Assembly: GCA_023246655.1 (NCBI GenBank)
Contig: JAHFHX010000004.1
Coordinates: 2,762-66,761, forward strand
Length of the DNA stretch: 64,000 bases
From: Candidatus Magasanikiibacteriota bacterium
Lineage (GTDB): Bacteria; Patescibacteriota; Patescibacteriia; Magasanikbacterales; GWA2-37-8
Reading direction: 5' to 3'
This document shows, one piece after another, positions 4,895-59,815 of the stretch. The notes beneath the pieces are model-generated. The model made no database searches, was not told the DNA's origin, and saw nothing but the letters and a program-made list of their open reading frames with translations. A program made the position numbers and the translations under genes. Position 1 is the first letter of the stretch, and every line of letters begins with the position of its first letter.

Positions 4895-6277
4895 ATGACA
4901 AACGGCGAAATTTGGCAGGCGGTTCTGGGAGAATTAGAGCTTACTATTTCCAAAGCTAATTTTGTGACTTGGTTTAAAAACACCGGCGTTGTTTCATACC
5001 AAGACGGACATGTTTTATTGTGTGTCCCCAATACCTTCACTAAGGCCTGGCTTGAAAAAAAATACCACCACCTTATTATTAAATCACTCGAGAGAATCAC
5101 CGGAAAACCGCTGCGTCGCTTGGAATATAAAATTGATAATATTAAAAACGTTGTCGAACAACCCCCAGCCCTGGCAACAACCTCTTCTCCTACACGTTCG
5201 CTAGAAACTTCATTTGTTTCTCGCCCCCCAACTAACGATCATGGTGGTTTTTCTCTTAACCCTAAGTATACCTTTGAGAGTTTTGTAGTTGGTAAAAGTA
5301 GTGAGCTGGCTTATGCAGCGGCCCAAGCGGTGGTAACGCGCCCTGGGGTAGCTTATAATCCGCTCTTTATTTATGGTGGAGTTGGCCTTGGTAAAACGCA
5401 TCTTATTCAAGCGGTGGGAAATGAACTCCGCCGCAACAACCCACAACTGACTGTTGTGTATGTGAGTGCCGAAAAGTTTTCTAATGATTTCATTACTTCC
5501 ATTAAAGAAAAGACGACCAAGGATTTCCTCGCTCGCTATCGTACTACCGATCTGCTCCTGATTGATGATATCCAGTTCATCGCAGGCAAAGAAGGAACAC
5601 AAGAGTCGTTTTTTCACACTTTCAACGAATTGCACCAACAAAATAAACAAGTAATCTTAACTTCAGATCGTCCACCAAAAGCTATTCCGGCCTTGGAAGA
5701 TCGACTGAAATCTCGTTTTGAGTGGGGCATGATTGCTGATGTTTCGACACCTGATTTTGAAACTCGAGTAGCCATTCTAGAGCGCAAGTGTTTGGAAAAA
5801 AACTTTCCTTTACCTATTAAAACCCTTCAATTTATCGCCAGCAATTTTCAAAGCAATATTCGTGAGTTGGAGGGGGCGCTCAATAAAATTATCGTATTTC
5901 ACCAGCTCAAAAATTGTGTTCCCACCCTAGAAACAATTAAAGAGGTTTTGATTTCCGCCAGCACCGTTTCAGCTCGTCAGTCACTTACTCCGCGTCAGCT
6001 TCTAGAGGTGGTTGGTCAATTTTATTCTTTAACAACTGATGATATTTTGAGTAAAAATAGAGAAAAAAAAATCTCTCTCCCGCGACAAATTATTATGTTT
6101 TTAATGCGCGAGGAGCTTAAAATGTCCTACCCCGCGATTGGTGATGAGTTGGGGGGTCGGGATCACACCACAGCCATGCATGCTCATGAAAAAATTGTTC
6201 GTGAACTTAACCAGGATCTTAAACTAAAACAAGATGTTGATTTATTAAAACAACGCTTGTATGTTAACAATGTATAA
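4895..6277 (+). CDS. dnaA: chromosomal replication initiator protein DnaA
   Basis: The N-terminus reads MTNGEIWQAVLGELE. The protein has a Walker A motif (GGVGLGKTHL), a sensor and box VII, and the C-terminal DNA-binding helix (LSLPRQIIMFLMREE...IGDELGGRDHTT). Confidence 0.95.
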   Translation: MTNGEIWQAVLGELELTISKANFVTWFKNTGVVSYQDGHVLLCVPNTFTKAWLEKKYHHLIIKSLERITGKPLRRLEYKIDNIKNVVEQPPALATTSSPTRSLETSFVSRPPTNDHGGFSLNPKYTFESFVVGKSSELAYAAAQAVVTRPGVAYNPLFIYGGVGLGKTHLIQAVGNELRRNNPQLTVVYVSAEKFSNDFITSIKEKTTKDFLARYRTTDLLLIDDIQFIAGKEGTQESFFHTFNELHQQNKQVILTSDRPPKAIPALEDRLKSRFEWGMIADVSTPDFETRVAILERKCLEKNFPLPIKTLQFIASNFQSNIRELEGALNKIIVFHQLKNCVPTLETIKEVLISASTVSARQSLTPRQLLEVVGQFYSLTTDDILSKNREKKISLPRQIIMFLMREELKMSYPAIGDELGGRDHTTAMHAHEKIVRELNQDLKLKQDVDLLKQRLYVNNV

Positions 6278-17854: not shown

Positions 17855-19285
17855 TTAAGTAATTGAGTCTGTTGTTACATAATATTGATGTGAGGATATG
17901 ACGATGGCTGCCAGTATCCAGAATAACATCGCGAGATCATTTTTAAAATAGGGCACATCGATGAGGCCGTGCAGTATGATGATAGTAAGAGCTGTAATGA
18001 GACTGGCACTGAGAAGCTTGTCGGAGTGTTGATATATTTTATAACAAATAACAAATAACAAATAACAAATAACAACGAACGAGCACATTCCGACGAGACC
18101 GATTTCTGTCCAAAAGTTGAGGAAGATGTTGTGTGGGTAGATGAGGCGTTCCATTTTTTTAACATCATAGTGTGGTTTTTGAATTTTGCGAAAGAATTGG
18201 CGAATGCCGGTGCCAAAGAGGAAGTTTTTGGGTGATTGTGTTAAGTAATTCCACGAATAGGACCAGAGAGTTAAACGATTGGTGAGTGATTGAGATTTTT
18301 GTTGCGGGAAGTAGGAAGTAGGAAGTAGGAAGTAGGCGGCGATGAAAGCGATAGTTATGAGAGTCGCGATAAGCGCGATTTTTTTGTGACCAATGAGATA
18401 GGTAAAGAGAACTGTTCCGAGCACGAGGGCGGTGAAGGTGCCGAGGGATTTGGTAAGGAGGATGACGAGTGTGGAAATGAGAGATAAGGAGATAAGGAGA
18501 TAAGGAGATATTGTTTTGGGTGGAGAGGTGTGATTGTTTTTTCGGTAGTGCAAAATTAAAAATAAAATGAGAGGAACAATCGGCCCGAGATATAATCCAA
18601 CTGCGTTGGGAGAGAGGAAAAATGAGGTGATACGGTGGGTTTGGAGGGCAATCCAGTCCACATTGCCAATGTGCCAGCCGGTAAAGCGTTGGAGGATGCC
18701 GAAGATACTAATGCTGAGGGTGGAGAGGGCGAGGAACCAGATGAGGTTGGTTGGTGTTAGGGTGGTAGGTTGTAGGGCGGTAGCGCAGTAGGCTAGCATT
18801 CCCCGCTGGGGCGGGGTAGGGGTGGGTGAGGACGCCGGCGTGGCCGTTGGCGGAACCGCGAAGTGCCCCCCCCGCCCAAGCGGGGATTTGTCGTCGTCGA
18901 CTCGACCAACGAGCATCACAAATACCAGCATCGGTTCCAAAAAGTAGGCCCGCCATTGGCCAAGTGAGTAATACCACATGTCGGAAACGAAGATGCCGGC
19001 GATTGAAGCAAGAAAGAACAAAGAACAAAGAACAAAGAACAACTTGTTAATTGTTAATTGTTCTTTTATGTGTGACCAGTCCGCGCGGGCATGCTTGACG
19101 AGCCAGACTAAAAATAAAACTCCGAACATGAGTTCGAGCAACGTTGATGGGAGGGGGCCGACTTTGAATCGAATGAGGTATGTGGGGAGACCAATAATAA
19201 ACAGGCCAATGGCGAGGCGGAAATTTTTCCAGGCAAGGAGAGTAAAAGCAAGGCCGTAGAGAGTGAGGAGCAATAATGGTAACAC
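17855..19285 (-). CDS. O-antigen ligase / Wzy_C-family polytopic membrane protein, containing four microsatellite tracts and one GC-hairpin insertion
   Basis: The protein has about 11 TM helices and the Wzy_C/WaaL signature IYPHNIFLNFWTEIGLVG. Several repetitive peptide stretches (ICYLLFVICY, YFLLPTSYF, LLISLSLIS, LFFVLCSLFFLAS) are encoded by the heptamer and octamer repeats. Confidence 0.75.
   Translation of the reverse strand: MLPLLLLTLYGLAFTLLAWKNFRLAIGLFIIGLPTYLIRFKVGPLPSTLLELMFGVLFLVWLVKHARADWSHIKEQLTINKLFFVLCSLFFLASIAGIFVSDMWYYSLGQWRAYFLEPMLVFVMLVGRVDDDKSPLGRGGHFAVPPTATPASSPTPTPPQRGMLAYCATALQPTTLTPTNLIWFLALSTLSISIFGILQRFTGWHIGNVDWIALQTHRITSFFLSPNAVGLYLGPIVPLILFLILHYRKNNHTSPPKTISPYLLISLSLISTLVILLTKSLGTFTALVLGTVLFTYLIGHKKIALIATLITIAFIAAYFLLPTSYFPQQKSQSLTNRLTLWSYSWNYLTQSPKNFLFGTGIRQFFRKIQKPHYDVKKMERLIYPHNIFLNFWTEIGLVGMCSFVVICYLLFVICYKIYQHSDKLLSASLITALTIIILHGLIDVPYFKNDLAMLFWILAAIVISSHQYYVTTDSIT
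18043..18075. repeat. (AACAAAT)x4.7 microsatellite inside the CDS
   Basis: Four perfect heptamers plus a partial copy. Confidence 0.95.
18308..18335. repeat. (GAAGTAG)x4 microsatellite inside the CDS
   Basis: Four perfect heptamers. Confidence 0.95.
18481..18510. repeat. (GAGATAAG)x3.75 microsatellite inside the CDS
   Basis: Three perfect octamers plus 6 nt. Confidence 0.95.
18795..18900. repeat. GC-rich hairpin element (family B) read in-frame inside the O-antigen ligase gene
   Basis: The DNA CCCCGCTGGGGCGGGG...CCCCCCCGCCCAAGCGGGG encodes HFAVPPTATPASSPTPTPPQRG, in an otherwise AT-rich gene. Confidence 0.6.
19012..19062. repeat. (CAAAGAA)x3-4 followed by (TTGTTAA)x2.5, inside the CDS
   Basis: Adjacent perfect heptamer runs. 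Confidence 0.9.
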
Positions 19286-21002: not shown

Positions 21003-21038
21003 AAAAAACCATCCCGACTGAGTCCGGATGGTTTTTTG
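21003..21038. terminator. bidirectional terminator CCATCCCGACTGAGTCCGGATGG between convergent genes
   Basis: The same hairpin family as at 2034 and 34582, flanked by A-run and T-run. Confidence 0.65.
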
Positions 21039-21058
21039 TTATAAATAATTACGCTTTG

Positions 21059-34563: not shown

Positions 34564-34581
34564 AAACGATTTTTAAAATAA

Positions 34582-34612
34582 AACATCCCGACTGAGTCGG
34601 GATGTTTTTATT
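34582..34612 (+). terminator. terminator hairpin ACATCCCGACTGAGTCGGGATGT followed by a T-run
   Basis: Third copy of the CATCCCGACTGAGTCGGGATG hairpin. Confidence 0.7.
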
Positions 34613-34839
34613 CTAGAAGATGCAAGTATTTTGTATGCTCTAGATGCAGGGTTTCATTGCGAGGAAACCCGACTCTTGGCCGGCGATAGTGTTATCGCCT
34701 GTTTCTTTTCAGCCGTCGTTTGGCCTGGCGACGGATATATTCCCGCGTGGCGGGACTATGGGAGGTGCCGAGATTCTCGGGAAGTACGGGCGGAATGGGT
34801 ACCGCCGTCGATTCCGAGCTCTCAGACTCGCGGTGGCGC

Positions 34840-42240: not shown

Positions 42241-42609
42241 CTATTTCAATTTAATGAGCGCCGATTTTTTAGCACCATATTTATATTTCATCCATTTGGC
42301 GCTTTCCTCAAGCATCCACTCACCATATTTATTATCCGGGACTAACTGAAAATCAACCGACCATTTTTCGTTTTTTTTAGTTGGTTTAGTTTTGAGGAAT
42401 ATCACAACGTCAATATCTTGCGGTCGTATTTTTGCGGTGGTAAAACTACCGAGCATGTGTACCGAAGCAATGGGGAGAATTTTTTCTAGTTTTTTCATTA
42501 CCCGCTCAAAGTGTTTCCACATTTCTTTACGATATTTTGAGTTTAACAATTCTTTAGGAATGGTTGGCTTCATAATTTTAATTATTTTATTCATTCCCCT
42601 CCCCAACAA
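42241..42609 (-). CDS. minimal nucleotidyltransferase (Pol-beta superfamily)
   Basis: The GS...D.D signature is present (LGSFTTAKIRPQDIDVVIFL). Confidence 0.55.
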   Translation of the reverse strand: MLGRGMNKIIKIMKPTIPKELLNSKYRKEMWKHFERVMKKLEKILPIASVHMLGSFTTAKIRPQDIDVVIFLKTKPTKKNEKWSVDFQLVPDNKYGEWMLEESAKWMKYKYGAKKSALIKLK

Positions 42610-42646
42610 GGGGAGGGGCGCAGGGTGGGGTTATCGGGGAATTAAT

Positions 42647-43456: not shown

Positions 43457-43804
43457 TTATTTTAGATTTGTCATCCCGAGCGAGCCTCGCGGCGACGAGG
43501 GATCCCTGTCCGTTATGTCCCAATACAAATCTTTCCATTTTGGGTTCATACTTTGAATTAATTTAATTTTTTTCTCTCGTCGCCAGGCTTTTATTTCTTT
43601 CTCACGATAGATGGCCTGTTTAATACCATTGTAATGTTCATAATAAACAGGTTTTTTGGTTTTATATTTTTTACTGAAACCACCACCTACCTCATCTTTG
43701 TGTTGTTCGACGCGTTCAATTAAATCATTGGTTACACCAACGTAGATCACATAACTAATACTCGCCATAATGTACGTGTAGAAATTGTAGTGTAATCGCG
43801 GCAT
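43457..43804 (-). CDS. GIY-YIG nuclease-domain protein (115 aa) nested in a family-A repeat
   Basis: The N-terminus YVIYVGVTNDLIERVEQH...YYEHY is the GIY-YIG fold. The last 15 codons (DRDPSSPRGSLGMTN) are encoded by the left arm of the repeat. Confidence 0.8.
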   Translation of the reverse strand: MPRLHYNFYTYIMASISYVIYVGVTNDLIERVEQHKDEVGGGFSKKYKTKKPVYYEHYNGIKQAIYREKEIKAWRREKKIKLIQSMNPKWKDLYWDITDRDPSSPRGSLGMTNLK

Positions 43805-43919
43805 AGCGGTTGATTGGACAGAGATTCCTCAGTCGCGCGAGTTTCTTCGGAATGACAGTTGGGTGGTCTTGATTGAGACAGAGATCCCTCACCCCTGCGA
43901 CGGGGATTCGGGATGACAA
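43457..43919 (-). mobile_element. candidate mobile cassette: family-A left arm, GIY-YIG gene, and two tandem family-A right arms
   Basis: The left arm GTCATCCCGAGCGAGCCTCGCGGCGACGAGGGATCCCTGTCCGTT lies at 43470-43514. Two right arms (TTGATTGGACAGAGATTCCTC...GGAATGACAG at 43810-43858 and TTGATTGAGACAGAGATCCCTC...GGGATGACAA at 43869-43919) flank the gene. The cassette sits between the ABC ATPase and permease genes. Confidence 0.6.
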
Positions 43920-45430: not shown

Positions 45431-46732
45431 TTAATTTAACAATTGTTGTTGTACAATTTGTTCGTTTGCTGGAAGCAACAGAACATGTTTCTTCTTTTTA
45501 AGAACCTGTTTGAGTGCTGAGGGCAGAGAAATTTTTTGGTGGAGGATAGGTTCGAGCGTGTCTTTAAATTTTGCCGGGTGAGCCGTACTCAAAACCACGA
45601 TAGGATGACTAGTGCCACGCTGTTTTTGATAATGCCAGGCGGCCGCAATACCAACAGCCGTGTGTGGATCAATAGTATAGTTGTAATGCTGGTATATTTT
45701 TTTAATGGTCTGCTTTGTTAAAGCCTCGGAAATGCTCGTGCCGATGATATCGCGGCGTATAGCCAGCAGACTGTGTTTATAGAGTTCTACTAGGCGCGCA
45801 AAATTACTTGGATTCCCCACGTCCATGGCATTGGAGATAGTTTGGTGTGAAGGCCTTGGTTTAAATTTTCCGGTTTTGAGAAATTGTGGCACTACATTGT
45901 TACGATTAGTGGCAGCAATAAATTGTTTAATTGGTAAGCCCATTTTTTTAGCCATCAGGCCAGCTACGAGATTACCAAAATTGCCGCTGGGCACTACAAC
46001 CACTGGTGACTCAAAAATTCCAAGGCGGTGCAGTTCAGCAATGGCATGAAAATAATAAAATGACTGGGGCAGCAGGCGCCCAAAGTTAATAGAATTAGCA
46101 GACGAAAGATTTTTTTTAGTTTGTAACTTTGGGTTATTGAGCAGTGCTTTGGCCAGTCGCTGACAATCATCAAATGATCCTTTAATGGCGAACGCGTGAA
46201 TGTTGTTGCCATAAGTAGTAAGTTGTTGTTCTTGGAGGCGACTGACGCGTTTGTGAGGGTAGAGAATATATACGTGCACTCCGGGGACTTTATAAAAACC
46301 ACTGGCTACAGCGCTGCCGGTGTCGCCGGAAGTGGCTACAATAATATTGATGGTTTGGTTAGTCTGTTGTAAATAATAGCTGAGGAGTCGTGCGAGGAAG
46401 CGGGCGCCAACATCTTTGAAGGCGAGGGTGGGGCCGTGAAATAATTCAAGTACGAACAGATTTTTGTCGAGTTGACGGAGAGGGATGGGGAAGTTGAGGG
46501 AATCCTGAAGAATGGACTTAAGTTTGACTGTGGGAATTCCTGCTAAAAATTCTCGGGCGATTGTATGTCCGATGTCTATCAGCGATTGTTTATCAAGCGC
46601 TTTTAAAAATTTTTTAGAGAGTGTTGGAATTTTTGCGGGTATGAACAAACCTCCATCTGGCGCCAAGCCGCGGGTGAGTACGGTGAGAAGATCAGTTGGT
46701 GATATTGTATGATTGGTGCTGTAAAATTTCAT
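45431..46732 (-). CDS. thrC: threonine synthase
   Basis: The PLP lysine motif HGPTLAFKDVG is present. The protein is 433 aa. Confidence 0.85.
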   Translation of the reverse strand: MKFYSTNHTISPTDLLTVLTRGLAPDGGLFIPAKIPTLSKKFLKALDKQSLIDIGHTIAREFLAGIPTVKLKSILQDSLNFPIPLRQLDKNLFVLELFHGPTLAFKDVGARFLARLLSYYLQQTNQTINIIVATSGDTGSAVASGFYKVPGVHVYILYPHKRVSRLQEQQLTTYGNNIHAFAIKGSFDDCQRLAKALLNNPKLQTKKNLSSANSINFGRLLPQSFYYFHAIAELHRLGIFESPVVVVPSGNFGNLVAGLMAKKMGLPIKQFIAATNRNNVVPQFLKTGKFKPRPSHQTISNAMDVGNPSNFARLVELYKHSLLAIRRDIIGTSISEALTKQTIKKIYQHYNYTIDPHTAVGIAAAWHYQKQRGTSHPIVVLSTAHPAKFKDTLEPILHQKISLPSALKQVLKKKKHVLLLPANEQIVQQQLLN

Positions 46733-47226
46733 ACGTGACGTAGTACTCTTTCAACAATAGTAGTAATGTCTAAATCGAGGCAGGGAATAATGTGGTGCGC
46801 GTAGCGCTCGTACACTGGCGTGCGCTCAGTGTAGAGACCAACATATCCTTTCTCTTTAAAGTCCACAATGCCGCGGCTGTTGTCGGCGTTATTGCCTAAG
46901 CGTCGTTGTATTTCGGTAAGGGGGAGTTCCAAGTATATAATTTTCGATTCGTGTTTTATTTTTTCCATCGCCTCTTGCGAATATATAATACTCCCGCCTG
47001 GCGAGAAGACCAAATTAGTAAAGGGTAGCTCTACGGTGAGATCATTTTCTAGTTTAAGGAGCGCTTCTTGGCCTTGTTCGTCAAGAATTTTATCATGACT
47101 GACGCTGGTTTTTTCTAAAATTAAAATATCAAGATCGACAAAGTTCCAGCCGAGTTGATGAGCAATCAATTTTCCGATTGTTGATTTGCCGGAACCCGGC
47201 ATGCCGATGAGGGTGAGGGCGGACAT
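46729..47226 (-). CDS. P-loop kinase of the shikimate-kinase fold, embedded in the threonine operon
   Basis: Walker A (GMPGSGKST), a DLD substrate motif and a LID-like region are present. The protein is 166 aa and its stop overlaps the thrC start. Confidence 0.6.
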   Translation of the reverse strand: MSALTLIGMPGSGKSTIGKLIAHQLGWNFVDLDILILEKTSVSHDKILDEQGQEALLKLENDLTVELPFTNLVFSPGGSIIYSQEAMEKIKHESKIIYLELPLTEIQRRLGNNADNSRGIVDFKEKGYVGLYTERTPVYERYAHHIIPCLDLDITTIVERVLRHV

Positions 47227-47227
47227 A

Positions 47228-47400
47228 GAGTTAGGATGGTAGGACAAGAGTCGTATTCCCCGCTTGAGCGGGGTGGTCGCCTCAAGGCGACCGAGGTGTG
47301 TGAGGCCGGTGAGCGGGCGATTCGTCAATGGATGCGATTTTATTGCCCCCGGCGGCTCACACCCCCCTACCCCCCCCCTCACAGGGGGGAGTTGAATATC
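47228..47400. repeat. family-B GC-rich hairpin cluster (CCCCGCTTGAGCGGGG, GCTCACACCCCCC, CCCCCCTCACAGGGGGG)
   Basis: The same motifs recur at 48517-48550, 48947-48990 and 59764-59815. Confidence 0.8.
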
Positions 47401-48491
47401 TATTTTACAAATCCTTGTGCAACTAACAGCTCCCCGTTCAAAATGCCGCCGCCGGCAGCGCCGCGGATGGTGTTATGGCTGAGGCCAACAAATTTGTAAT
47501 CGAATACCGGGCAGGGGCGCAGGCGCCCAACGGTGACCGCCATGCCTTTATCGGCATCACGATCTTTGCGGGGCTGGGGGCGGTTATCTTCCGTACGGTA
47601 GATAATTGGTTGTACTGGAGCGGAAGGCAAATTCAGTTGCTGTGGTAGAGAACGAAACAATTGCCAGCTATTTTTAATTTCGTCGGGAGTTGGTTTTTTA
47701 TCTTTGAATCTGATACTCACGCATGCTAAGTGCCCGTCAATCACTGGTACCCGGTTGCAGTGTGCAGAGATGGTGAGGCCGGTTCGAGGAAGAATTTTAT
47801 TTTCAGCCATTGTACCCAGAATTTTGAGTGGCTCCTGTTCGGTTTTTTCTTCTTCACCGCCAATATAGGGCACGACGTTATCAAGAATATCTAGGCTCGC
47901 TACTCCTGGGTAACCAGCACCTGAGATCGCTTGGAGGGTCGTTACCACAACATCACTGAGCGTGTAGCCAGCTTGTTCCAGTGCATAGAGCGGTGTGAGA
48001 TAACTTTGCAAACTGCAATTGGGTTTAACAATAATGCAGCCACTCCAGCCGCGTTGCTTCTGTTGTGCGGTAATGAGATTAAGATGAGAGGCATTAATTT
48101 CTGGGATGAGCATGGGGATATCCTCAGTCCAGCGGTGAGCGGAAGCGTTGGAAACTACGGCGAGGCCAGCAACTGCATAGGTGTTTTCGGTTTCTTGCAG
48201 TGCAGTTTTATTCGGAAGTTCAATGGCCGAAAAAACTAGGCGGCAATTTTTCGCGGCATTCGTTATATCTTCAACAGCGTGGACGGGAAGTTCTAAAATG
48301 GCTGTTGGTATATTATCGGCCAGGTGAGAACGGCCGGCGATGGCTTCGCGATATGGTTTACCAGCGGAGTTGGCCGAGGCGGCGAGGTGTGTTAGAGTAA
48401 ACCACGGGTGGTTGGCTAAGAGTTGCACATAACGTTGCCCAACCATGCCCGTTGCACCCAGAATACCAACGGGGATTTTATGAGAGATCAT
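47400..48491 (-). CDS. asd: aspartate-semialdehyde dehydrogenase
   Basis: The N-terminus is VGILGATGMVGQ, and the active-site Cys (CSLQS) and His regions are present. Confidence 0.9.
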   Translation of the reverse strand: MISHKIPVGILGATGMVGQRYVQLLANHPWFTLTHLAASANSAGKPYREAIAGRSHLADNIPTAILELPVHAVEDITNAAKNCRLVFSAIELPNKTALQETENTYAVAGLAVVSNASAHRWTEDIPMLIPEINASHLNLITAQQKQRGWSGCIIVKPNCSLQSYLTPLYALEQAGYTLSDVVVTTLQAISGAGYPGVASLDILDNVVPYIGGEEEKTEQEPLKILGTMAENKILPRTGLTISAHCNRVPVIDGHLACVSIRFKDKKPTPDEIKNSWQLFRSLPQQLNLPSAPVQPIIYRTEDNRPQPRKDRDADKGMAVTVGRLRPCPVFDYKFVGLSHNTIRGAAGGGILNGELLVAQGFVK

Positions 48492-48512: not shown

Positions 48513-48926
48513 TTAATCCCCCCTCGAGGGGGGTAGTGGGGGTGTGAGCCCTTTGCGTGGCTCAATCCAATCGACAATTCGTTGGGTTACATTGTCAATA
48601 TCGCGACGCACCTCGTGTTCTTGAAATCGTAATACAATAAATCCTTGTTGTTCTAATTGTTGCTGTCGTTTTTTATCATATTCCATTTGAGCATCATGGC
48701 CAAAGCCATCGAGTTCAATTATAAGTTTTAATTCACGACAGTACAAGTCAACAATATAATTCAGTATTGTTGTTTGACGAATGAACTTGTAACCAAGTAA
48801 TTGGCGGCCTTTTAGTTTTTTCCACAATAATACTTCGCCGAGCGTAGAATTTTTACGTAAGTCTCGAGCTCGATTTTTAAGATTTGTTTTATATAAAGAG
48901 AACGTTCGGTTTGTTTTGATAACCAT
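48513..48926 (-). CDS. DUF559 (Vsr-like very-short-patch-repair endonuclease fold) protein
   Basis: The C-terminal sequence GFIVLRFQEHEV and the motifs LLGYKFIRQ and VDLYC match DUF559. Confidence 0.7.
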   Translation of the reverse strand: MVIKTNRTFSLYKTNLKNRARDLRKNSTLGEVLLWKKLKGRQLLGYKFIRQTTILNYIVDLYCRELKLIIELDGFGHDAQMEYDKKRQQQLEQQGFIVLRFQEHEVRRDIDNVTQRIVDWIEPRKGLTPPLPPSRGD

Positions 48927-48990
48927 ATTAGTGACGACTCTCGGAAGCTCACACCCCCCGTGAACCCCCCTCAAGGGGGGATTTGAGCTC
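48517..48990. mobile_element. DUF559 gene bracketed by roughly 35-bp inverted family-B repeats
   Basis: The left repeat is TCCCCCCTCGAGGGGGGTAGTGGGGGTGTGAGCC (48517-48550). The right repeat, GCTCACACCCCCCGTGAACCCCCCTCAAGGGGGGATTTGAGCTC (48947-48990), is its inverted counterpart. Confidence 0.55.
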
Positions 48991-51405
48991 TTTAATACTT
49001 TGTAAAATTCCAGAGAGGACACCGGCTGCGGTAACCTCGGGGCCAGCACCAGGGCCGCGAATGACCAGCGGAGAGTGGTGATAGTGCGTAGAGGTAATAG
49101 CAACAATATTGTCGCTGCCGGTGAGATTATAGAAGGGATGATCTGGGCCAACGAGGCGAAGTTTTACTAAAGCGCGATTACGTTCTATGGTAGCAATATA
49201 GCGGAGCACTTTTTTATTGCGGGCGGCCTGTTTTTTTTGTTGTTCGAATTCAGCATCGTATTTTGGCAAGAGACGGAAAAATTCGGAAATTGAGGCGGCG
49301 TGCGCACAAGCTTTGGGGAGTAGATTATCGATTTTGACTTCCGATGTTTCCAGTTGCCAACCGCATTCGCGTGCGAGGATGACGACTTTGCGCACCACAT
49401 CAACCCCGCCCAGATCAACGCGCGGATCAGATTCCGTGAAACCTTTATCTCGTGCTTCCTTTACTAGAGCACTCCAGTGCTTGGCGCCAACAAAGCTATT
49501 GAAGAGAAAACTTAATGTTCCTGAAAGAATTCCTTCAATTTTAATTATTCTGTCGCCACTCTCAATGAGGCGTTGTAGAGTGGTGATAATTGGTAGTCCA
49601 GCTCCCACATTGGTTTCATAATGCCACGGTGTTTTTTGAGCCAATGTTTTTAGGAGTTGATAGTTTTTGTTTGGCCCAGCAGCCGCCTGTTTGTTGGGGG
49701 TTACTATCGCAATTCCGGCCTCGAGCAATTCTGGATAGTAAGGAACGATATCTGCTCCGGCTGTGCAATCTACGAGGACGCGACGTGGGAGTAGTGATTT
49801 TTTTAGAGTTTCTAGAAATATCTTTAGATCGGGCGCTCTTCCTACCGTGGTTAACGTTTTTTTCCAGGCGGAACTCTGTATGCCTTGTTCATCAATGAGC
49901 ATCGCGTGGTTATTTGTTAATCCGACGAGCTTGATTGACGGTTGATTTTTTATCATGTTTAACAATGTTCCGCCGACCACACCGGTTCCAACCACAAAGA
50001 CAGCTGTAGTATTGGCAGTATTTTTAAAAAATGCCTCGTGAATAGCTTGGAGCGCTCTAATTTCATCCCGGCCTTGGATTACCACAGAAATATTGAGCTC
50101 AGATGACCCCTGGGCGATAGCCACCACGTTTATTCCGGCGTGCCCAAGCGCATTAAAAACAGTGCCACTCACCCCAGGCGTGTGGCGCATATTTTCTCCT
50201 ACCACGGCGATGATGGAAAGGTTCTCGGTAATTGTGAGAGGTTCTAAGTAATGCCCAGAGAGCTCCAGGGCATATTCATTTTCAACCACGCGGCGCGCTA
50301 AAATAACATCGGCCGCTGCCACCGCAAAGGAAATAGAATATTCAGAGGAGGCCTGGGTAATGAGAATAATATTAATACCAGCTCTTGCAATAGCGCCAAA
50401 GAGGCGTTCGGCCATGCCAGCAACACCGACGAGCCCACTGCCGGCTACGGTGATCATCGCAATTTTTTGAATTGAAGAAATACCTTTTATCGCATAGGAG
50501 AACGGCTTATCTTCGAAATTAATAAGCGTGCCCGGGTGCCGGGGGTTAAAGGTATTTTTAATTAGAAGTGGGATGTTTGCCTCTAGCGCCGGGAGCATGG
50601 TGGGCGGATGGATAACTTTGGCCCCAAAATAAGACATTTCCATAGCTTCACGGTAGGTAAGTGAGGGCAGGGAGAAAGCGGTAGGAACTTGTTTGGGGTT
50701 GGCAGTCATCACACCATTTACATCGGTCCAAATTTCGATGACGTCGGCTGTGAGGGCGGCCCCAAAGAGGGCAGCAGTATAATCTGATCCACCGCGGCCA
50801 AGTGTTGTGGTTTGCCCAGCAGCGGTTTTACCAATAAAGCCCGTAGCGATGGGAAGGGAGGTTGGGTGATTTTTACACCAGGTTTGAATATTGCGATAGC
50901 TATGGGCGCGGTCAACGTGGGCATTGCCAAAGTGGTCGTCGGTCAGAATAACTTCCCGGGTATCTAAGTATACCGCTTTAAGATCTTGACTTATGAAAGC
51001 GGCCGTAATGATGGTAGCTGAGAGGCGTTCACCAAAGCTCATAATAAAATCCAGCATTGACGGTGTTAATTCTTTCACCAGTGAGACACCATGGATGATT
51101 TGTTTTAATTCTTTGAACATCAACTCAATCTGAGCCATGGCAGCAGGCTGCTGTTTTTCCCCGACGAGTTCTTGGATCGCATCCTGGTGTCGAGTATGGA
51201 GCGCTAAGAGAGGTGGTTGAAAATCTTCACTCCCCGTGCTGGCTCGTTTCCCGAGAGCGATAAGCTGATCGGTGATGCCGCTAAAAGCCGAAACTACTAC
51301 CACCAGCTGCCGATGTTTTCTGCGGGTTTCCTTAATAATTTTGATGATTTGTTTAATAGCAGCCGGCGAGCCAACTGATGTTCCTCCAAATTTAAGTATT
51401 TTCAT
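48949..51405 (-). CDS. bifunctional aspartokinase / homoserine dehydrogenase
   Basis: The 818-aa protein starts MKILKFGGTSVGS (aspartokinase), has ACT domains, and has a C-terminal HSDH domain with an NAD GxGxxG motif. Its last 11 codons are encoded by the family-B repeat. Confidence 0.85.
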   Translation of the reverse strand: MKILKFGGTSVGSPAAIKQIIKIIKETRRKHRQLVVVVSAFSGITDQLIALGKRASTGSEDFQPPLLALHTRHQDAIQELVGEKQQPAAMAQIELMFKELKQIIHGVSLVKELTPSMLDFIMSFGERLSATIITAAFISQDLKAVYLDTREVILTDDHFGNAHVDRAHSYRNIQTWCKNHPTSLPIATGFIGKTAAGQTTTLGRGGSDYTAALFGAALTADVIEIWTDVNGVMTANPKQVPTAFSLPSLTYREAMEMSYFGAKVIHPPTMLPALEANIPLLIKNTFNPRHPGTLINFEDKPFSYAIKGISSIQKIAMITVAGSGLVGVAGMAERLFGAIARAGINIILITQASSEYSISFAVAAADVILARRVVENEYALELSGHYLEPLTITENLSIIAVVGENMRHTPGVSGTVFNALGHAGINVVAIAQGSSELNISVVIQGRDEIRALQAIHEAFFKNTANTTAVFVVGTGVVGGTLLNMIKNQPSIKLVGLTNNHAMLIDEQGIQSSAWKKTLTTVGRAPDLKIFLETLKKSLLPRRVLVDCTAGADIVPYYPELLEAGIAIVTPNKQAAAGPNKNYQLLKTLAQKTPWHYETNVGAGLPIITTLQRLIESGDRIIKIEGILSGTLSFLFNSFVGAKHWSALVKEARDKGFTESDPRVDLGGVDVVRKVVILARECGWQLETSEVKIDNLLPKACAHAASISEFFRLLPKYDAEFEQQKKQAARNKKVLRYIATIERNRALVKLRLVGPDHPFYNLTGSDNIVAITSTHYHHSPLVIRGPGAGPEVTAAGVLSGILQSIKELKSPLEGGSRGV

Positions 51406-53389: not shown

Positions 53390-53779
53390 TTAATTTATGG
53401 ACAGAATAAGAAAGGCGCTGGTCGCGAGCGCGATGCCAATGTAGGTTGTGATGGATATTGATTCCCGTAACAATAAGAGCCCGATAATATTAGCAAACAC
53501 AATCGATACTATTGCGAAGAGTGTTATGGTTTTGCCGAGTTGAATAGTTGTAAAGACGTAGAGCTGACCAAGCGTGGCTAAAGAGTGTAATAATACATAT
53601 ATAATAAACCAACCATGCAAAAAACTATTTATCGTAAAGCCATATTTGTGCATGAAGTGGCGACCGAGCACGTCACTGGCAGTGAAAACAAGCTGGGTTA
53701 AAATGAGGATTATGAGGGGCGATGTCATAGCATTGCTTAAGCTAGATAATTTTGTTAAGATGAACGCAAAGTTGTACAT
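53390..53779 (-). CDS. small four-helix membrane protein (SMR/EamA-like, ArnE/ArnF-like)
   Basis: The protein is 129 aa with four TM helices and lies adjacent to a glycosyltransferase. Confidence 0.45.
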   Translation of the reverse strand: MYNFAFILTKLSSLSNAMTSPLIILILTQLVFTASDVLGRHFMHKYGFTINSFLHGWFIIYVLLHSLATLGQLYVFTTIQLGKTITLFAIVSIVFANIIGLLLLRESISITTYIGIALATSAFLILSIN

Positions 53780-53807
53780 ATCATATCAAGAATTTGATAG
53801 GTTGACT

Positions 53808-55139
53808 ATGATGGAAAATGTCCTAAAAATTCTCATCCTCCACGACTATTTTCTCTACAAAGGCGGCGGGGAGCGGTTGGTGATTAGTCTTGCCAAAAAT
53901 TTGGGGGCGGATGTGGCGACGGCGTTTATTGCCAAGGATGCTTTTGATCCGCGTGAGCACGGGATTAGGACGATTGAATTATATAAAGAGAAGGCGTGGT
54001 CGCGTGTGCCCGGGTTTCGATATTTGCAGGTGCAGTCGTCGTTTTTGTTTAAGACGGGGTTTGTAAAGAATTATGATGTAGTGATTTATAGTGGCGATTG
54101 TTTGACGGCAGCACTTCGAACTGGCGTATTGTCATCCCGAGCGAGGCTCGCGCCGACGAGGGATCTCTGTCCGTCGGTGAGTGAGCCAGAGATTCTTCGC
54201 TCTGCTCAGAATGACAGTAAAAAATCAGAAAGACGGCCAGTGAACATCGCTTACATGCACACGCCGCCTCGGCATTTGTATGATTTGTATGACGAGAGAT
54301 TGCGCTCATATCCCTGGTGGAAGAAAATTATTTTTGTGCCGTTTGTCTTGTTTAACCGGTGGAGATTTTTAGCCTTGGCACGAATGATGGATAGGATTGT
54401 GACGAATTCGAAAAATACTCAAGCGCGGATAAAAAAGTATCTGGGACTCGATTCGATAGTAGTGTATCCGCCGTGTGACACTCTTCCGTTCAAAAATCTC
54501 CGTCATTCCGAGCGAGGCCTCGCGGCCGACGAGGAATCTCTGTCCGTTTCGTCAACGAGTGAGACAGAGATTCCTCCTGCGGTCGGGATGACAAGTGTTG
54601 GCGATTATTTTTTCTCCTGGGCGCGATTGTATGATGTGAAACGGGTTCACCTCATCGCGGAGGCATTTGCCAAGATGCCAGACAAAAAAGTAGTCATTGC
54701 ATCGCAGGGCCCAGAGTTTGAGCGGATAAAAAAAATTGTTGAGGGGCACAGCAATATTACGCTTCTAGGTTGGATTGATGACCAACAATTGCTGGAGTAT
54801 TTGGGCAAATCTTTAGCCACGATTTACATTCCCATGGCTGAGGATTTTGGGATGACGGCGGTGGAATCCATGCAAGCGGGGAAGCCGGTGATTGGGGTGG
54901 CGGAGGGAGGACTTTTAGAAATCATTGAAGATAATAAAAATGGGTTGATGTTGAAACCGGATTTTACGGTTGACGATTTACGATTGAAGATTTTAGAAAT
55001 GACACCAGAGCGGGTGCGGGTGATGGAAGCAGCGTGTTATGAAACGGCGAAGAAGTTTAGTGAAGCGGCATTTGTGGAGGGGATGAGGGAGGTGATTGAG
55101 AAATACCAAATACCAAATACCAAATACCAAAGCTGTTGA
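53808..55139 (+). CDS. GT4-family glycosyltransferase with two in-frame family-A repeat insertions
   Basis: The C-terminal GT4 EX7E region (GMTAVESMQAGKPVIGVAEGGLLEII) is present. The inserted segments read VLSSRARLAPTRDLCPSVSEPEILRSAQNDS and RHSERGLAADEESLSVSSTSETEIPPAVGMTS. Confidence 0.75.
   Translation: MMENVLKILILHDYFLYKGGGERLVISLAKNLGADVATAFIAKDAFDPREHGIRTIELYKEKAWSRVPGFRYLQVQSSFLFKTGFVKNYDVVIYSGDCLTAALRTGVLSSRARLAPTRDLCPSVSEPEILRSAQNDSKKSERRPVNIAYMHTPPRHLYDLYDERLRSYPWWKKIIFVPFVLFNRWRFLALARMMDRIVTNSKNTQARIKKYLGLDSIVVYPPCDTLPFKNLRHSERGLAADEESLSVSSTSETEIPPAVGMTSVGDYFFSWARLYDVKRVHLIAEAFAKMPDKKVVIASQGPEFERIKKIVEGHSNITLLGWIDDQQLLEYLGKSLATIYIPMAEDFGMTAVESMQAGKPVIGVAEGGLLEIIEDNKNGLMLKPDFTVDDLRLKILEMTPERVRVMEAACYETAKKFSEAAFVEGMREVIEKYQIPNTKYQSC
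54131..54217. repeat. family-A element (87 bp) translated in-frame within the glycosyltransferase gene
   Basis: GTCATCCCGAGCGAGGCTCGCGCCGACGAGGGATCTCTGTCCGTC...GCCAGAGATTCTTCGCTCTGCTCAGAATGACAG. Confidence 0.85.
54502..54594. repeat. family-A element (93 bp) translated in-frame within the same gene, in a different frame relative to the repeat
   Basis: GTCATTCCGAGCGAGGCCTCGCGGCCGACGAGGAATCTCTGTCCGTT...GAGACAGAGATTCCTCCTGCGGTCGGGATGACAAG. Confidence 0.85.
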
Positions 55140-57022: not shown

Positions 57023-57832
57023 TTACCGTGAGGTCAAATAGTAATTCTGTTCTTTTTTAGAAAATTTTTCAATGGCATATCGTAGCATGGTGCGGGGCAT
57101 TGTTTGATGATGGTGGTTAAGGAATTTTTTTAGCGTCGGCGGCGATTTTTTTCCCACTTCGCGTAGCATCCAGCCGCAGGCTTTCTGAATCAGATCGTGT
57201 TTGTCAGTGAGGAGGAGTTTGGAAATTTTGAGCGTTTCGTCAAAATGATTCGCGCGGATGAAAGCAAAGGTAGCAACGATGGCAATGCGACGTTCCCAGA
57301 GGTTGGTGGAGCGGGCGAGGGTGACGAGGACAGCCAACCGCGGCCGAACCCCCCTCTCTATCTCCCCCCTATAAGGGGGGAGAGGGCCATCAATGCCCTC
57401 CCCTACAAGGGGAGGGACGGAGGGCGGGGTTTTCGTCTCGCGCATTTGGTTGAGTAAGTACTCGCCGACAATCTGCGGGGCGGAGGTGTCGACTAAATCC
57501 CAATTGTTAATTCGTTTGGTGTTTTTGAGGTAGAAGTTGTAAATTTTTTTCTTCTGTTTATTATCCCCGATTTGAAATTGACGTACCAGGATGATAAGGC
57601 CAGTGAAACGCTCCTCATGAACTTTTGATTTGAGTAGTTTTTGTATGTCGGCGAGTGAAAGATCGTAAAATTTTTTGGCGATGGTTCGTTGCTTCGGTAC
57701 GGTGAGCCCAAGAAATAGGTCGCCATGGCCGTATTCACCCGGTGCGGTTTTAAAAAAGCCAGCATAGATTTTGGCTTTGGTGGGGTTGGCATGGGAGCGA
57801 AGAATTTTTTTGAGTTCGGTGAGATAATACAT
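57023..57832 (-). CDS. AlkD-like HEAT-repeat DNA alkylation repair glycosylase carrying a family-B insertion
   Basis: The sequence MYYLTELKKILRSHANPTKAKIYAGFFKT...NNWDLVD matches AlkD. The segment RETKTPPSVPPLVGEGIDGPLPPYRGEIERGVRPRL is encoded by tandem GC hairpins. Confidence 0.7.
   Translation of the reverse strand: MYYLTELKKILRSHANPTKAKIYAGFFKTAPGEYGHGDLFLGLTVPKQRTIAKKFYDLSLADIQKLLKSKVHEERFTGLIILVRQFQIGDNKQKKKIYNFYLKNTKRINNWDLVDTSAPQIVGEYLLNQMRETKTPPSVPPLVGEGIDGPLPPYRGEIERGVRPRLAVLVTLARSTNLWERRIAIVATFAFIRANHFDETLKISKLLLTDKHDLIQKACGWMLREVGKKSPPTLKKFLNHHHQTMPRTMLRYAIEKFSKKEQNYYLTSR
57345..57435. repeat. family-B tandem GC hairpins (CCCCCCTCTCTATCTCCCCCCTATAAGGGGGGAGAGGG...CCCTCCCCTACAAGGGGAGGG)
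   Basis: A GC island inside an AT-rich gene. Confidence 0.8.
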
Positions 57833-59732: not shown

Positions 59733-59763
59733 ATTATTTTTGAGAGGGGGCGGTGGTGAAAAT

Positions 59764-59815
59764 CCCCGCTTGAGCGGGGTGGCCCGCGTCGCAGCGGGAC
59801 CGGGGGTGTGTGAGC
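59764..59815. repeat. family-B element (CCCCGCTTGAGCGGGG...GGGGGTGTGTGAGCG)
   Basis: The same two sub-motifs as at 47228-47400, in opposite orientation. Confidence 0.75.

Follow-up and report, generated by a model that had tools for sequence, protein, structure and literature searches.

A DUF559 nuclease gene between inverted hairpin repeats in the threonine operon of a Magasanikiibacteriota genome: a candidate compact selfish element

We analyzed 64,000 nucleotides of a Candidatus Magasanikiibacteriota genome (contig JAHFHX010000004.1, positions 2,762 to 66,761, hereafter the window), whose threonine operon holds a small nuclease gene of the DUF559 family enclosed by inverted copies of a hairpin repeat (Table 1). 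Gene order, all on the minus strand, was thrA, a 137-amino acid open reading frame (ORF), asd, a kinase gene of the shikimate-kinase (SKI) family, and thrC. The 137-amino acid ORF encodes the nuclease, and together with its repeats it forms a unit at 48515-48983 that we call the cassette. The bracket consisted of inverted copies of one unit, a CCCCCCTNGAGGGGGG hairpin plus a GGGGGTGTGAGC tail. The repeat at 48517-48550 reads ATCCCCCCTCGAGGGGGGTAGTGGGGGTGTGAGC (ATCCCCCCTCGAGGGGGG-TAGT-GGGGGTGTGAGC), and the reverse complement of the repeat at 48947-48983 reads AATCCCCCCTTGAGGGGGGTTCACGGGGGGTGTGAGC (AATCCCCCCTTGAGGGGGG-TTCAC-GGGGGGTGTGAGC), with the hairpin CCCCCCTTGAGGGGGG at 48965-48980 and the G-rich tail GGGGGGTGTGAGC at 48947-48958. 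Both units combine a perfect GC hairpin with a G-rich tail behind it, and these tails face inward toward the nuclease gene. The hairpin pattern occurred nine times in the window vs 0.08 expected and the tail four times vs 0.21 expected, and no shuffle matched either count.

The repeats at both ends of the cassette contain coding sequence. The last 12 codons of the DUF559 gene (GLTPPLPPSRGD) are encoded by the 3' repeat, with the stop codon at 48513-48515. ThrA ends within the repeat at 48947-48983, which holds its final 11 codons (KSPLEGGSRGV) and the TGA stop (48949-48951). The short leader that separates the ATG from the 5' repeat may be the ribosome-binding region. A promoter and terminator scan of the cassette ends gave nothing specific, and no intrinsic terminator signal stood out there. 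The locus was identical in two independent metagenome assemblies (L001 and L002, the only contigs with an identical protein, which are 99.99-100% identical and come from the same strain), so it is not an assembly artifact. The initial annotation of this DNA, made from the letters alone, had described a DUF559 gene between asd and thrA, inverted hairpin repeats on both of its sides, and a repeat that supplies the end of ThrA, and we recovered all three.

The nuclease matched Pfam DUF559 (PF04480) over residues 15-120 (E=6.3e-36, 123 bits, cutoff 20.6) and the Neisseria DUF559 protein 3HRL in the PDB (E=4.8e-17). The match to this solved DUF559 structure settles the fold. A weak match (E=0.08, residues 66-119) was to 3R3P, the catalytic domain of I-Bth0305I, a homing endonuclease. 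Residues E31, D60, E71, D73, and H77 were invariant in 23 homologs, and D84 was at least 90% conserved. From the spacing and published work on I-Bth0305I (PMC3239194), we infer that the conserved E, D, H, and D residues correspond to E25/D51/H69 of Vsr and E170/D196/H213 of I-Bth0305I. Judged by these matches, the protein is a DUF559 member in the Vsr-like branch of the PD-(D/E)XK superfamily with predicted nuclease activity. It contained no Pfam domain besides DUF559 and MTES_1575 (PD-(D/E)XK), with neither a NUMOD/helix-turn-helix (HTH) region nor an HUH/Y1 domain. It scored 17.2 bits against the Vsr model TIGR00632, whose cutoff of 97.85 places it outside Vsr proper, and 81 bits against the NCBIfam model for YcjD (PRK09767), under the equivalog cutoff of 218 bits. 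A search with PADLOC gave a weak match (E=1.2e-5), to the nuclease domain that methyl-directed type II enzymes carry, and homologs were annotated at source as 'very-short-patch-repair endonuclease'. DUF559 is a very large family: in a single-sequence search against clusters at 50% identity, the number of representatives was 20,568 for E<=1e-3 and 8,229 for E<=1e-10. A scan of viral contigs returned distant relatives only, the best at 44% identity, and carriage of this DUF559 subfamily by phages was therefore unsupported.

Relatives of the window lacked the nuclease gene in their threonine loci. We found these relatives by scanning species-representative genomes with Asd, and the closest were Patescibacteria with 58-67% identity. 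In seven relatives from the Candidate Phyla Radiation (CPR) with a bifunctional thrA (L003, L005, L006, L008, L010, L011, and L016), asd begins 0-30 bp after thrA (147 bp in L010), and no DUF559 gene was present in the thrA-asd locus of any of the seven. The cassette interior has a GC content of 33-35% vs 45-53% in the neighboring thrA and asd. Because the spacers of the relatives are short and free of DUF559 and the GC content is deviant, the cassette is an insertion relative to these genomes. ThrA of the seven relatives stops a few residues past a conserved ...ADIL(K/R)T motif. The window ThrA has 818 residues, but its homology to the relatives stops at 803-805 and its Pfam Homoserine_dh match at 801, both before the KSPLEGGSRGV tail, which is therefore foreign. 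By this comparison, the window thrA has lost its native stop, with the C-terminus of the protein extended by the repeat. A separate observation concerns L010, where the thrA-asd spacer (5855-6000) carries an unrelated 147-bp element with inverted ends of ~22 bp (CCCAGCAGTACAATTTGGCAT ... ATGCCAAATTGTACTAGCTGGG); the junction was hit independently by a different small element in this other CPR genome.

The same ends were found at other sites. The closest DUF559 homologs (64-67% identity) came from other CPR genomes and lay in unrelated contexts: between a lactonase-repeat gene and an fn3-type gene in L083, and between a BNR-repeat gene and frr in L085 and L088, which are orthologous sites. The CPR cassettes have a 5' end of the form AATCCCCCCTTGAGGGGGGT(A)GGGGGGTGTAA..CCGAGAG..ATG and a 3' end of the form CTCACACCCCC..CCCCTCAAGGGGGGA. 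In a four-way alignment, similarity between sites spans AATCCCCCC to GGGGGGATT, from the outer edge of one hairpin to the outer edge of the other, with nothing beyond, and the repeats were the best-conserved columns. The repeats are the ends of a unit, and they travel with the gene to unrelated sites.

A metagenome scan with the alignment of the 23 homologs yielded 80 further loci at 41-58% identity, and the bracket was tested in 68 loci with a standalone-sized ORF and enough flank. Flanks repeatedly contained a GC-rich hairpin and G-rich tail before the start codon and the complementary tail and hairpin within the last codons. In local alignments, the 5' flank scored a mean of 16.8 against the reverse complement of its own 3' end vs 9.9 against the 3' ends of other loci, with own ends scoring higher in 55/68 loci (Wilcoxon p=2.5e-9). 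Scores of at least 14 were reached in 39/68 loci and of at least 18 in 29/68. We distinguished at least six tail variants, each matching at both ends of its locus (GGGGTGGGT, GGGGTGTGT, GGGGGTTGT, GGGGGATGT, GGGGGAGG, and GGGGGGTGGA). The bracket is a family-wide feature in which the tail differs by lineage and the two ends of a locus co-vary.

These units had a median length of 467 bp (range 427-581), with terminal inverted repeats of ~35 bp in the window and 25-45 bp in 29 well-defined loci. No direct repeats indicative of target-site duplication were found at the ends in these 29 loci, where boundaries came from local alignment and duplications of 1-2 bp could escape. The upstream neighbor was co-oriented in 50/55 loci and the downstream neighbor in 34/49. 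Half of the units begin 40 nt or less past the upstream stop codon and end ~30 nt or less before the next start. The same bracket enclosed DUF559 genes on two plasmids, pAQ6 from Picosynechococcus PCC 7002 and one from Deinococcus. The initial annotation had further proposed that the nuclease gene was inserted in the threonine operon and that its limits were set by one of the palindromic repeat families in the genome. Both proposals agree with the comparisons above, since the gene was absent from this position in the relatives examined rather than present in all of them, and the flanking repeats proved to be related when many copies were aligned. The target-site duplications that it suggested looking for did not appear.

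The Escherichia coli K-12 member of the family, ycjD (L177, 5250-5900), is likewise located directly downstream of a co-oriented operon, following sapF of sapABCDF. It has a degenerate 3' hairpin under its Pro-rich C-terminus and a tail-like GGGTTAGGGGCTGTATGAGC nearby. YcjD and the Neisseria protein 3HRL share the DUF559 family with the window nuclease, but the E. coli bracket is degenerate whereas the window copy has near-perfect ends. The E. coli locus also contains a second, diverged copy of the ycjD 3' end after the gene, ending in GGGTTAGGGGCTGTATGAGC like the window tail motif, and a hairpin with a 16-bp stem upstream of the ycjD start.

Several loci departed from the simple cassette. 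L094-L096 (1-4387) contained three co-oriented DUF559 genes in 4.4 kb, one behind each successive host gene (TolB-like, resistance-nodulation-division adaptor). The most similar copies, in L095 (92% over 568 nt), were considered as delimiters of the element and set aside, as their similarity continues into the downstream gene starts and looks like segmental duplication. A DUF1156 (methylase-like) gene on a plasmid of Synechocystis sp. B12 (L179, 828-3352) has a DUF559 gene within it. On either side of an insert of ~530 nt, homology to the DUF1156 protein of PCC 7002 runs on in the same frame, and the repeat units here face outward, not inward. The database proteins P0121, P0122, P0125, and P0181 had either two or three copies of the DUF559 domain or one at the end of a protein of 700-1200 amino acids. 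Such multi-domain or large-partner 'proteins' are probably read-through fusions over stop-free repeats, whether annotation artifacts or real fusions. An extra variable hairpin between the first hairpin and the G-rich tail was seen in L097, L123, L162, L163, and L095 and at window positions 47257-47300 and 59763-59815, and the hairpin-tail junction may be a preferred site for additions.

Gene-less copies of the cassette ends occur elsewhere in the same genome, some of them in frame inside genes (Table 1). The window contained one DUF559 gene vs at least six other units. In the doublet next to asd, a hairpin, a second hairpin, and a tail (47257-47300) are followed by the inverted tail complement and hairpin (47355-47389). 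Hairpins with C/G runs numbered 13 in the 64-kb window vs one in fifteen asd loci of CPR relatives (~160 kb in total). Over all loci retrieved, they occurred 1.82 times per 10 kb in the sequence flanking DUF559 genes vs 0.20 times in 80 DUF559-less loci, a control that compares different taxa and is supportive only. Inward-facing, gene-less doublets with cognate tails were also found in L107 and as two near-identical copies of ~105 nt in L147.

We considered the doublet next to asd as the remnant of a deleted DUF559 gene, as its plus-strand ORF AIRQWMRF..PRRLTPPYPPPHRGE resembles the DUF559 C-terminus (tblastn E=0.59). This reading fell once the repeat-encoded part was removed, when the DNA score was 9 vs 8.0 +/- 1.2 for shuffles and 115/500 shuffles were as good. 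One might expect a homoserine kinase in the place of the adjacent SKI-family gene (46729-47238), which separates asd from thrC, and the part of the thr cluster that was examined showed no thrB-type gene. The long ORF call for the SKI gene (to 47382) reaches into the doublet, and a shorter start is more likely.

The window contained a second nuclease gene between inverted repeats. A GIY-YIG nuclease gene lies between an ATP-binding cassette (ABC) transporter ATPase gene and its permease gene, co-oriented with both. Its bracket belongs to a different repeat family, family A (TTGTCATCCCGA...GAGGGATCTCTGTC), and is 43 nt long with 74% complementarity; two tandem units stand upstream. The GIY-YIG C-terminus is encoded by the 3' family-A repeat. 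The two cassettes share the same plan, a similar size (~460 bp for GIY-YIG), and a gene that reads through its own 3' repeat, as the initial annotation had anticipated in drawing a parallel between the loci. Family-A units at 54125-54203 and 54525-54586 fall within a glycosyltransferase-like ORF (53574-55139), where they read as the peptides ...ILRSAQNDSKKSERR... and ...HSERGLAADEESLSVS...; they look like in-frame insertions, or else the ORF call is over-extended. A third short repeat, AAAAACCATCCCGACTGAGTCGGGATGGTTTTT, was present in three copies (2032-2068, 21004-21040, and 34578-34614) and has the form of a bidirectional intrinsic terminator.

Table 1 Features of the DUF559 cassette, its host genes, gene-less units, and the GIY-YIG cassette (window coordinates).
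Feature	Position	Strand	Evidence or remark
thrA (aspartokinase / homoserine dehydrogenase; AA_kinase + ACT + Homoserine_dh)	48949..51405	-	host gene upstream of cassette
5' terminal inverted repeat (5' relative to DUF559 gene)	48947..48983	-	similarity between cassettes at different sites starts sharply here
Short leader, 5' repeat to ATG	48927..48946	-	CCGAGAG motif kept in CPR cassettes (alignment)
DUF559 (Vsr-like PD-(D/E)XK) nuclease gene, predicted, 137 aa	48513..48926	-	Pfam, 3HRL, homolog alignment
3' terminal inverted repeat	48515..48550	-	tail complement GCTCACACCCCC at 48538-48549; hairpin at 48518-48533
asd (aspartate-semialdehyde dehydrogenase)	47400..48491	-	host gene downstream; ATG 23 nt past cassette end
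Doublet between asd and SKI-family kinase gene	47257..47389		tails inward, as in cassette
Doublet, 87 nt, in frame inside O-antigen-ligase-like (Wzy_C) gene (17855-19285)	18800..18886		read as KSPLGRGGHFAVPPTATPASSPTPTPPQRG
Composite of two family-related hairpin units, in frame in DNA_alkylation repair gene (57023-57832)	57341..57435		splits Pfam match in two
Solo unit (hairpin, second hairpin, GGGGGTGTGTGAGC)	59763..59815	+	leader region of DCC1-like gene
Solo unit	42591-42636		
GIY-YIG nuclease gene (115 aa, 43457-43804) and family-A inverted repeats (43468-43510, 43877-43919)	43457..43919	-	E=6.9e-10

We consider it probable, with some reserve, that one copy of a selfish element lies at 48515-48983, compact at ~467 bp and composed of a single DUF559 nuclease gene of the Vsr-like/EDxHD type and terminal inverted repeats of ~35 bp. 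The loci examined across the family suggest that this gene-plus-bracket is a widespread mini mobile element. The element has inserted into the short thrA-asd spacer, taking away the thrA stop codon, and it is probably transcribed by read-through of the thr operon, as suggested by the strong co-orientation with upstream genes and the lack of promoter or terminator signals at the ends. We infer the following mechanism for its movement. The nuclease may bind as a dimer to the palindromic hairpin-plus-tail unit, either as duplex or as an extruded cruciform, and cut there. This binding mode is proposed because the protein has no separate DNA-binding domain and because the homing nuclease I-Bth0305I works as a dimer on a pseudopalindrome of 14 bp (PMC3239194). 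Breaks at gene-less units or doublets could then be repaired by recombination with a gene-bearing copy, with the 35-45 bp repeats as homology. Such repair would copy the gene in, much as in homing, and this is the route we favor. A hydrolytic PD-(D/E)XK enzyme cannot rejoin DNA, and spread would then depend on repair by the host, in keeping with the lack of target-site duplications.

Several points weigh against the cassette being such an element. No filled/empty pair of close genomes was found (the nearest others are ~65% identical in Asd), and the insertion junction and target are consequently undefined. The window has a single full copy, and movement is deduced rather than observed. The palindromes are intact at the cassette ends, where a cutting nuclease would hit its own flanks, unlike in classical homing, in which insertion destroys the target. 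Homing also leaves the arrival of gene-less units at new sites, including inside genes, unexplained. Pairing of RNA or of single strands would also make the two ends co-vary, as would gene conversion between them. Finally, the hairpin-density control sets different taxa side by side, and the test of the doublet next to asd as a deleted-gene remnant was negative.

The main rival to a selfish element is a partnership like that between repetitive extragenic palindromic (REP) sequences and REP-associated tyrosine transposases (RAYT). Here the hairpin-plus-tail units would replicate, and DUF559 would be a single-copy, largely vertical helper nuclease located between its own substrates. The layout is that of a RAYT locus, with a gene between two inverted copies of the genome's palindromic repeat, and the repeats are also scattered as gene-less singlets and inward doublets (REPIN-like), each unit combining a hairpin with a short conserved tag. 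The DUF559 and REP/RAYT systems likewise share the lack of target-site duplications and a preference for positions just downstream of genes. In support of such a helper, the window has a single DUF559 gene and at least six other units, the cassette occupies one shared locus in the diverged genomes L085 and L088, and E. coli ycjD resembles an old resident copy. However, RAYTs are HUH/Y1 transposases of the IS200/IS605-like type (IS, insertion sequence), whereas the cassette protein is a Vsr-like hydrolytic PD-(D/E)XK nuclease and so would not perform strand transfer. The tags also differ, with a G-rich tail of ~9-13 nt in the cassette (GGGGGTGTGAGC or lineage variants) and GTAG or CGTC in REPs, and the DUF559 gene reads through its own 3' repeat. 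Related genomes carry the gene and its ends at loci that have nothing in common, the relatives lack both in their thr operon, and contigs with several DUF559 genes in a few kb point to a proliferating gene rather than a domesticated single copy. The layout is the same and the present data fit both accounts, and we regard a REP/RAYT-like partnership as a serious though rather unlikely alternative.

The repeats might instead act mainly at the RNA level: within the operon transcript, they would pair as a double-stranded panhandle of ~34 bp that encloses the nuclease ORF. This structure would permit processing (e.g., by RNase III), or it would restrict translation of the nuclease and thereby buffer the host operon, a role compatible with mobility. 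The cassette RNA was predicted to fold with its repeats paired end to end (-149 kcal/mol vs -108 +/- 6 for shuffles, z = -6.8), the absence of an outstanding promoter or intrinsic terminator signal at the ends agrees with such a role, and co-orientation with the upstream gene fits read-through expression. Such a fold follows trivially from any inverted repeat, however, and end mismatches compatible with G-U pairing showed no clear excess in the sense over the antisense direction (41 vs 27). An RNA-level role also leaves the patchy distribution, the gene-less copies within genes, and the sharp shared ends unexplained, and we consider it improbable as the main explanation. Least of all do we expect an ordinary host nuclease, active in Vsr-type mismatch repair or in restriction and defense, that came to lie between REP-like intergenic hairpins by chance. 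The source annotations of homologs and the PADLOC match would suit such an enzyme, and a DUF559 protein acts in a Vsr-like manner in Caulobacter (PMC12907096). But the score against TIGR00632 (17 bits vs 97.85) speaks against Vsr proper, a co-varying bracket at independent DUF559 genes (39/68 loci) goes beyond chance neighborhood, and the gene is missing from the operon of relatives and deviant in GC content. We judge this last explanation very improbable.

Compared with other known systems, the selfish element that we favor has a lifestyle close to that of EDxHD homing endonucleases such as I-Bth0305I (PMC3239194). Both are small selfish nuclease genes wedged between conserved host genes and patchily distributed among relatives. 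They share a Vsr-like catalytic domain with conserved E, D, H, and D residues, and dimerization on a pseudopalindrome would fit a palindromic substrate. The DUF559 cassette differs in having no NUMOD/HTH region, intron, or intein, in keeping its terminal inverted repeats intact after insertion, and in occupying many unrelated loci rather than one allelic site. It differs further from free-standing homing endonuclease genes in that its close relatives are rare in viral contigs. With MITEs (miniature inverted-repeat transposable elements) and Rickettsia palindromic elements (RPEs), the cassette shares palindromic units that occur both in intergenic DNA and in frame in coding genes (here Wzy_C, DNA_alkylation, and the ThrA C-terminus), whose proteins tolerate them as inserted peptides. 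DDE-type IS elements and MITEs also have terminal inverted repeats, but the cassette has neither a DDE transposase nor a target-site duplication. Unlike RPEs, for which a MITE review mentions no nuclease or partner gene (PMC10969869), the cassette units flank a candidate partner, the nuclease. By its predicted protein and its ends, the cassette therefore falls outside Vsr proper, the characterized EDxHD homing endonucleases, RAYTs, and DDE-type IS/MITEs. Its layout most resembles REP/RAYT, its lifestyle most resembles free-standing homing endonuclease genes, and its gene-less units resemble RPE-type in-frame insertions in their behavior.

No description of an association between DUF559 and repeats was found in the literature searched, coverage of which was incomplete, and we treat the novelty of this association as provisional. 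We tentatively propose, at somewhat less than even confidence, that standalone DUF559 genes with hairpin-plus-tail repeats represent an unrecognized class of autonomous mini mobile elements of ~470 bp. This class would span several phyla and use no transposase or recombinase, its gene-less derivatives would be the source of REP-like and RPE-like repeats, including in-frame insertions, and the GIY-YIG cassette would represent a second, convergent class. If true, this would supply a defined enzyme-substrate pair for a problem of long standing, the spread of short palindromic repeats in bacterial genomes. Their origin and spread have been explained only in part, and a passage in PMC8266576 described the dissemination of REPs as poorly understood. 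A second, unrelated partnership of nuclease and repeat would show more than one evolutionary origin of this arrangement, with the GIY-YIG cassette as a possible third case.

There are also consequences for annotation. Because the repeats lack stop codons, they extend or fuse neighboring ORFs, as in the ThrA tail and the multi-DUF559 'proteins' of databases. Picosynechococcus PCC 7002 is genetically tractable, and since the bracket is present in this cultured cyanobacterium, experiments should be feasible. DUF559, a very large family of unknown function that includes E. coli YcjD, gains a concrete, testable context from these results, in which many of its members form a fixed unit with matching ends. 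Such units follow closely behind co-oriented genes, and gene-less copies of the ends occur alongside them.

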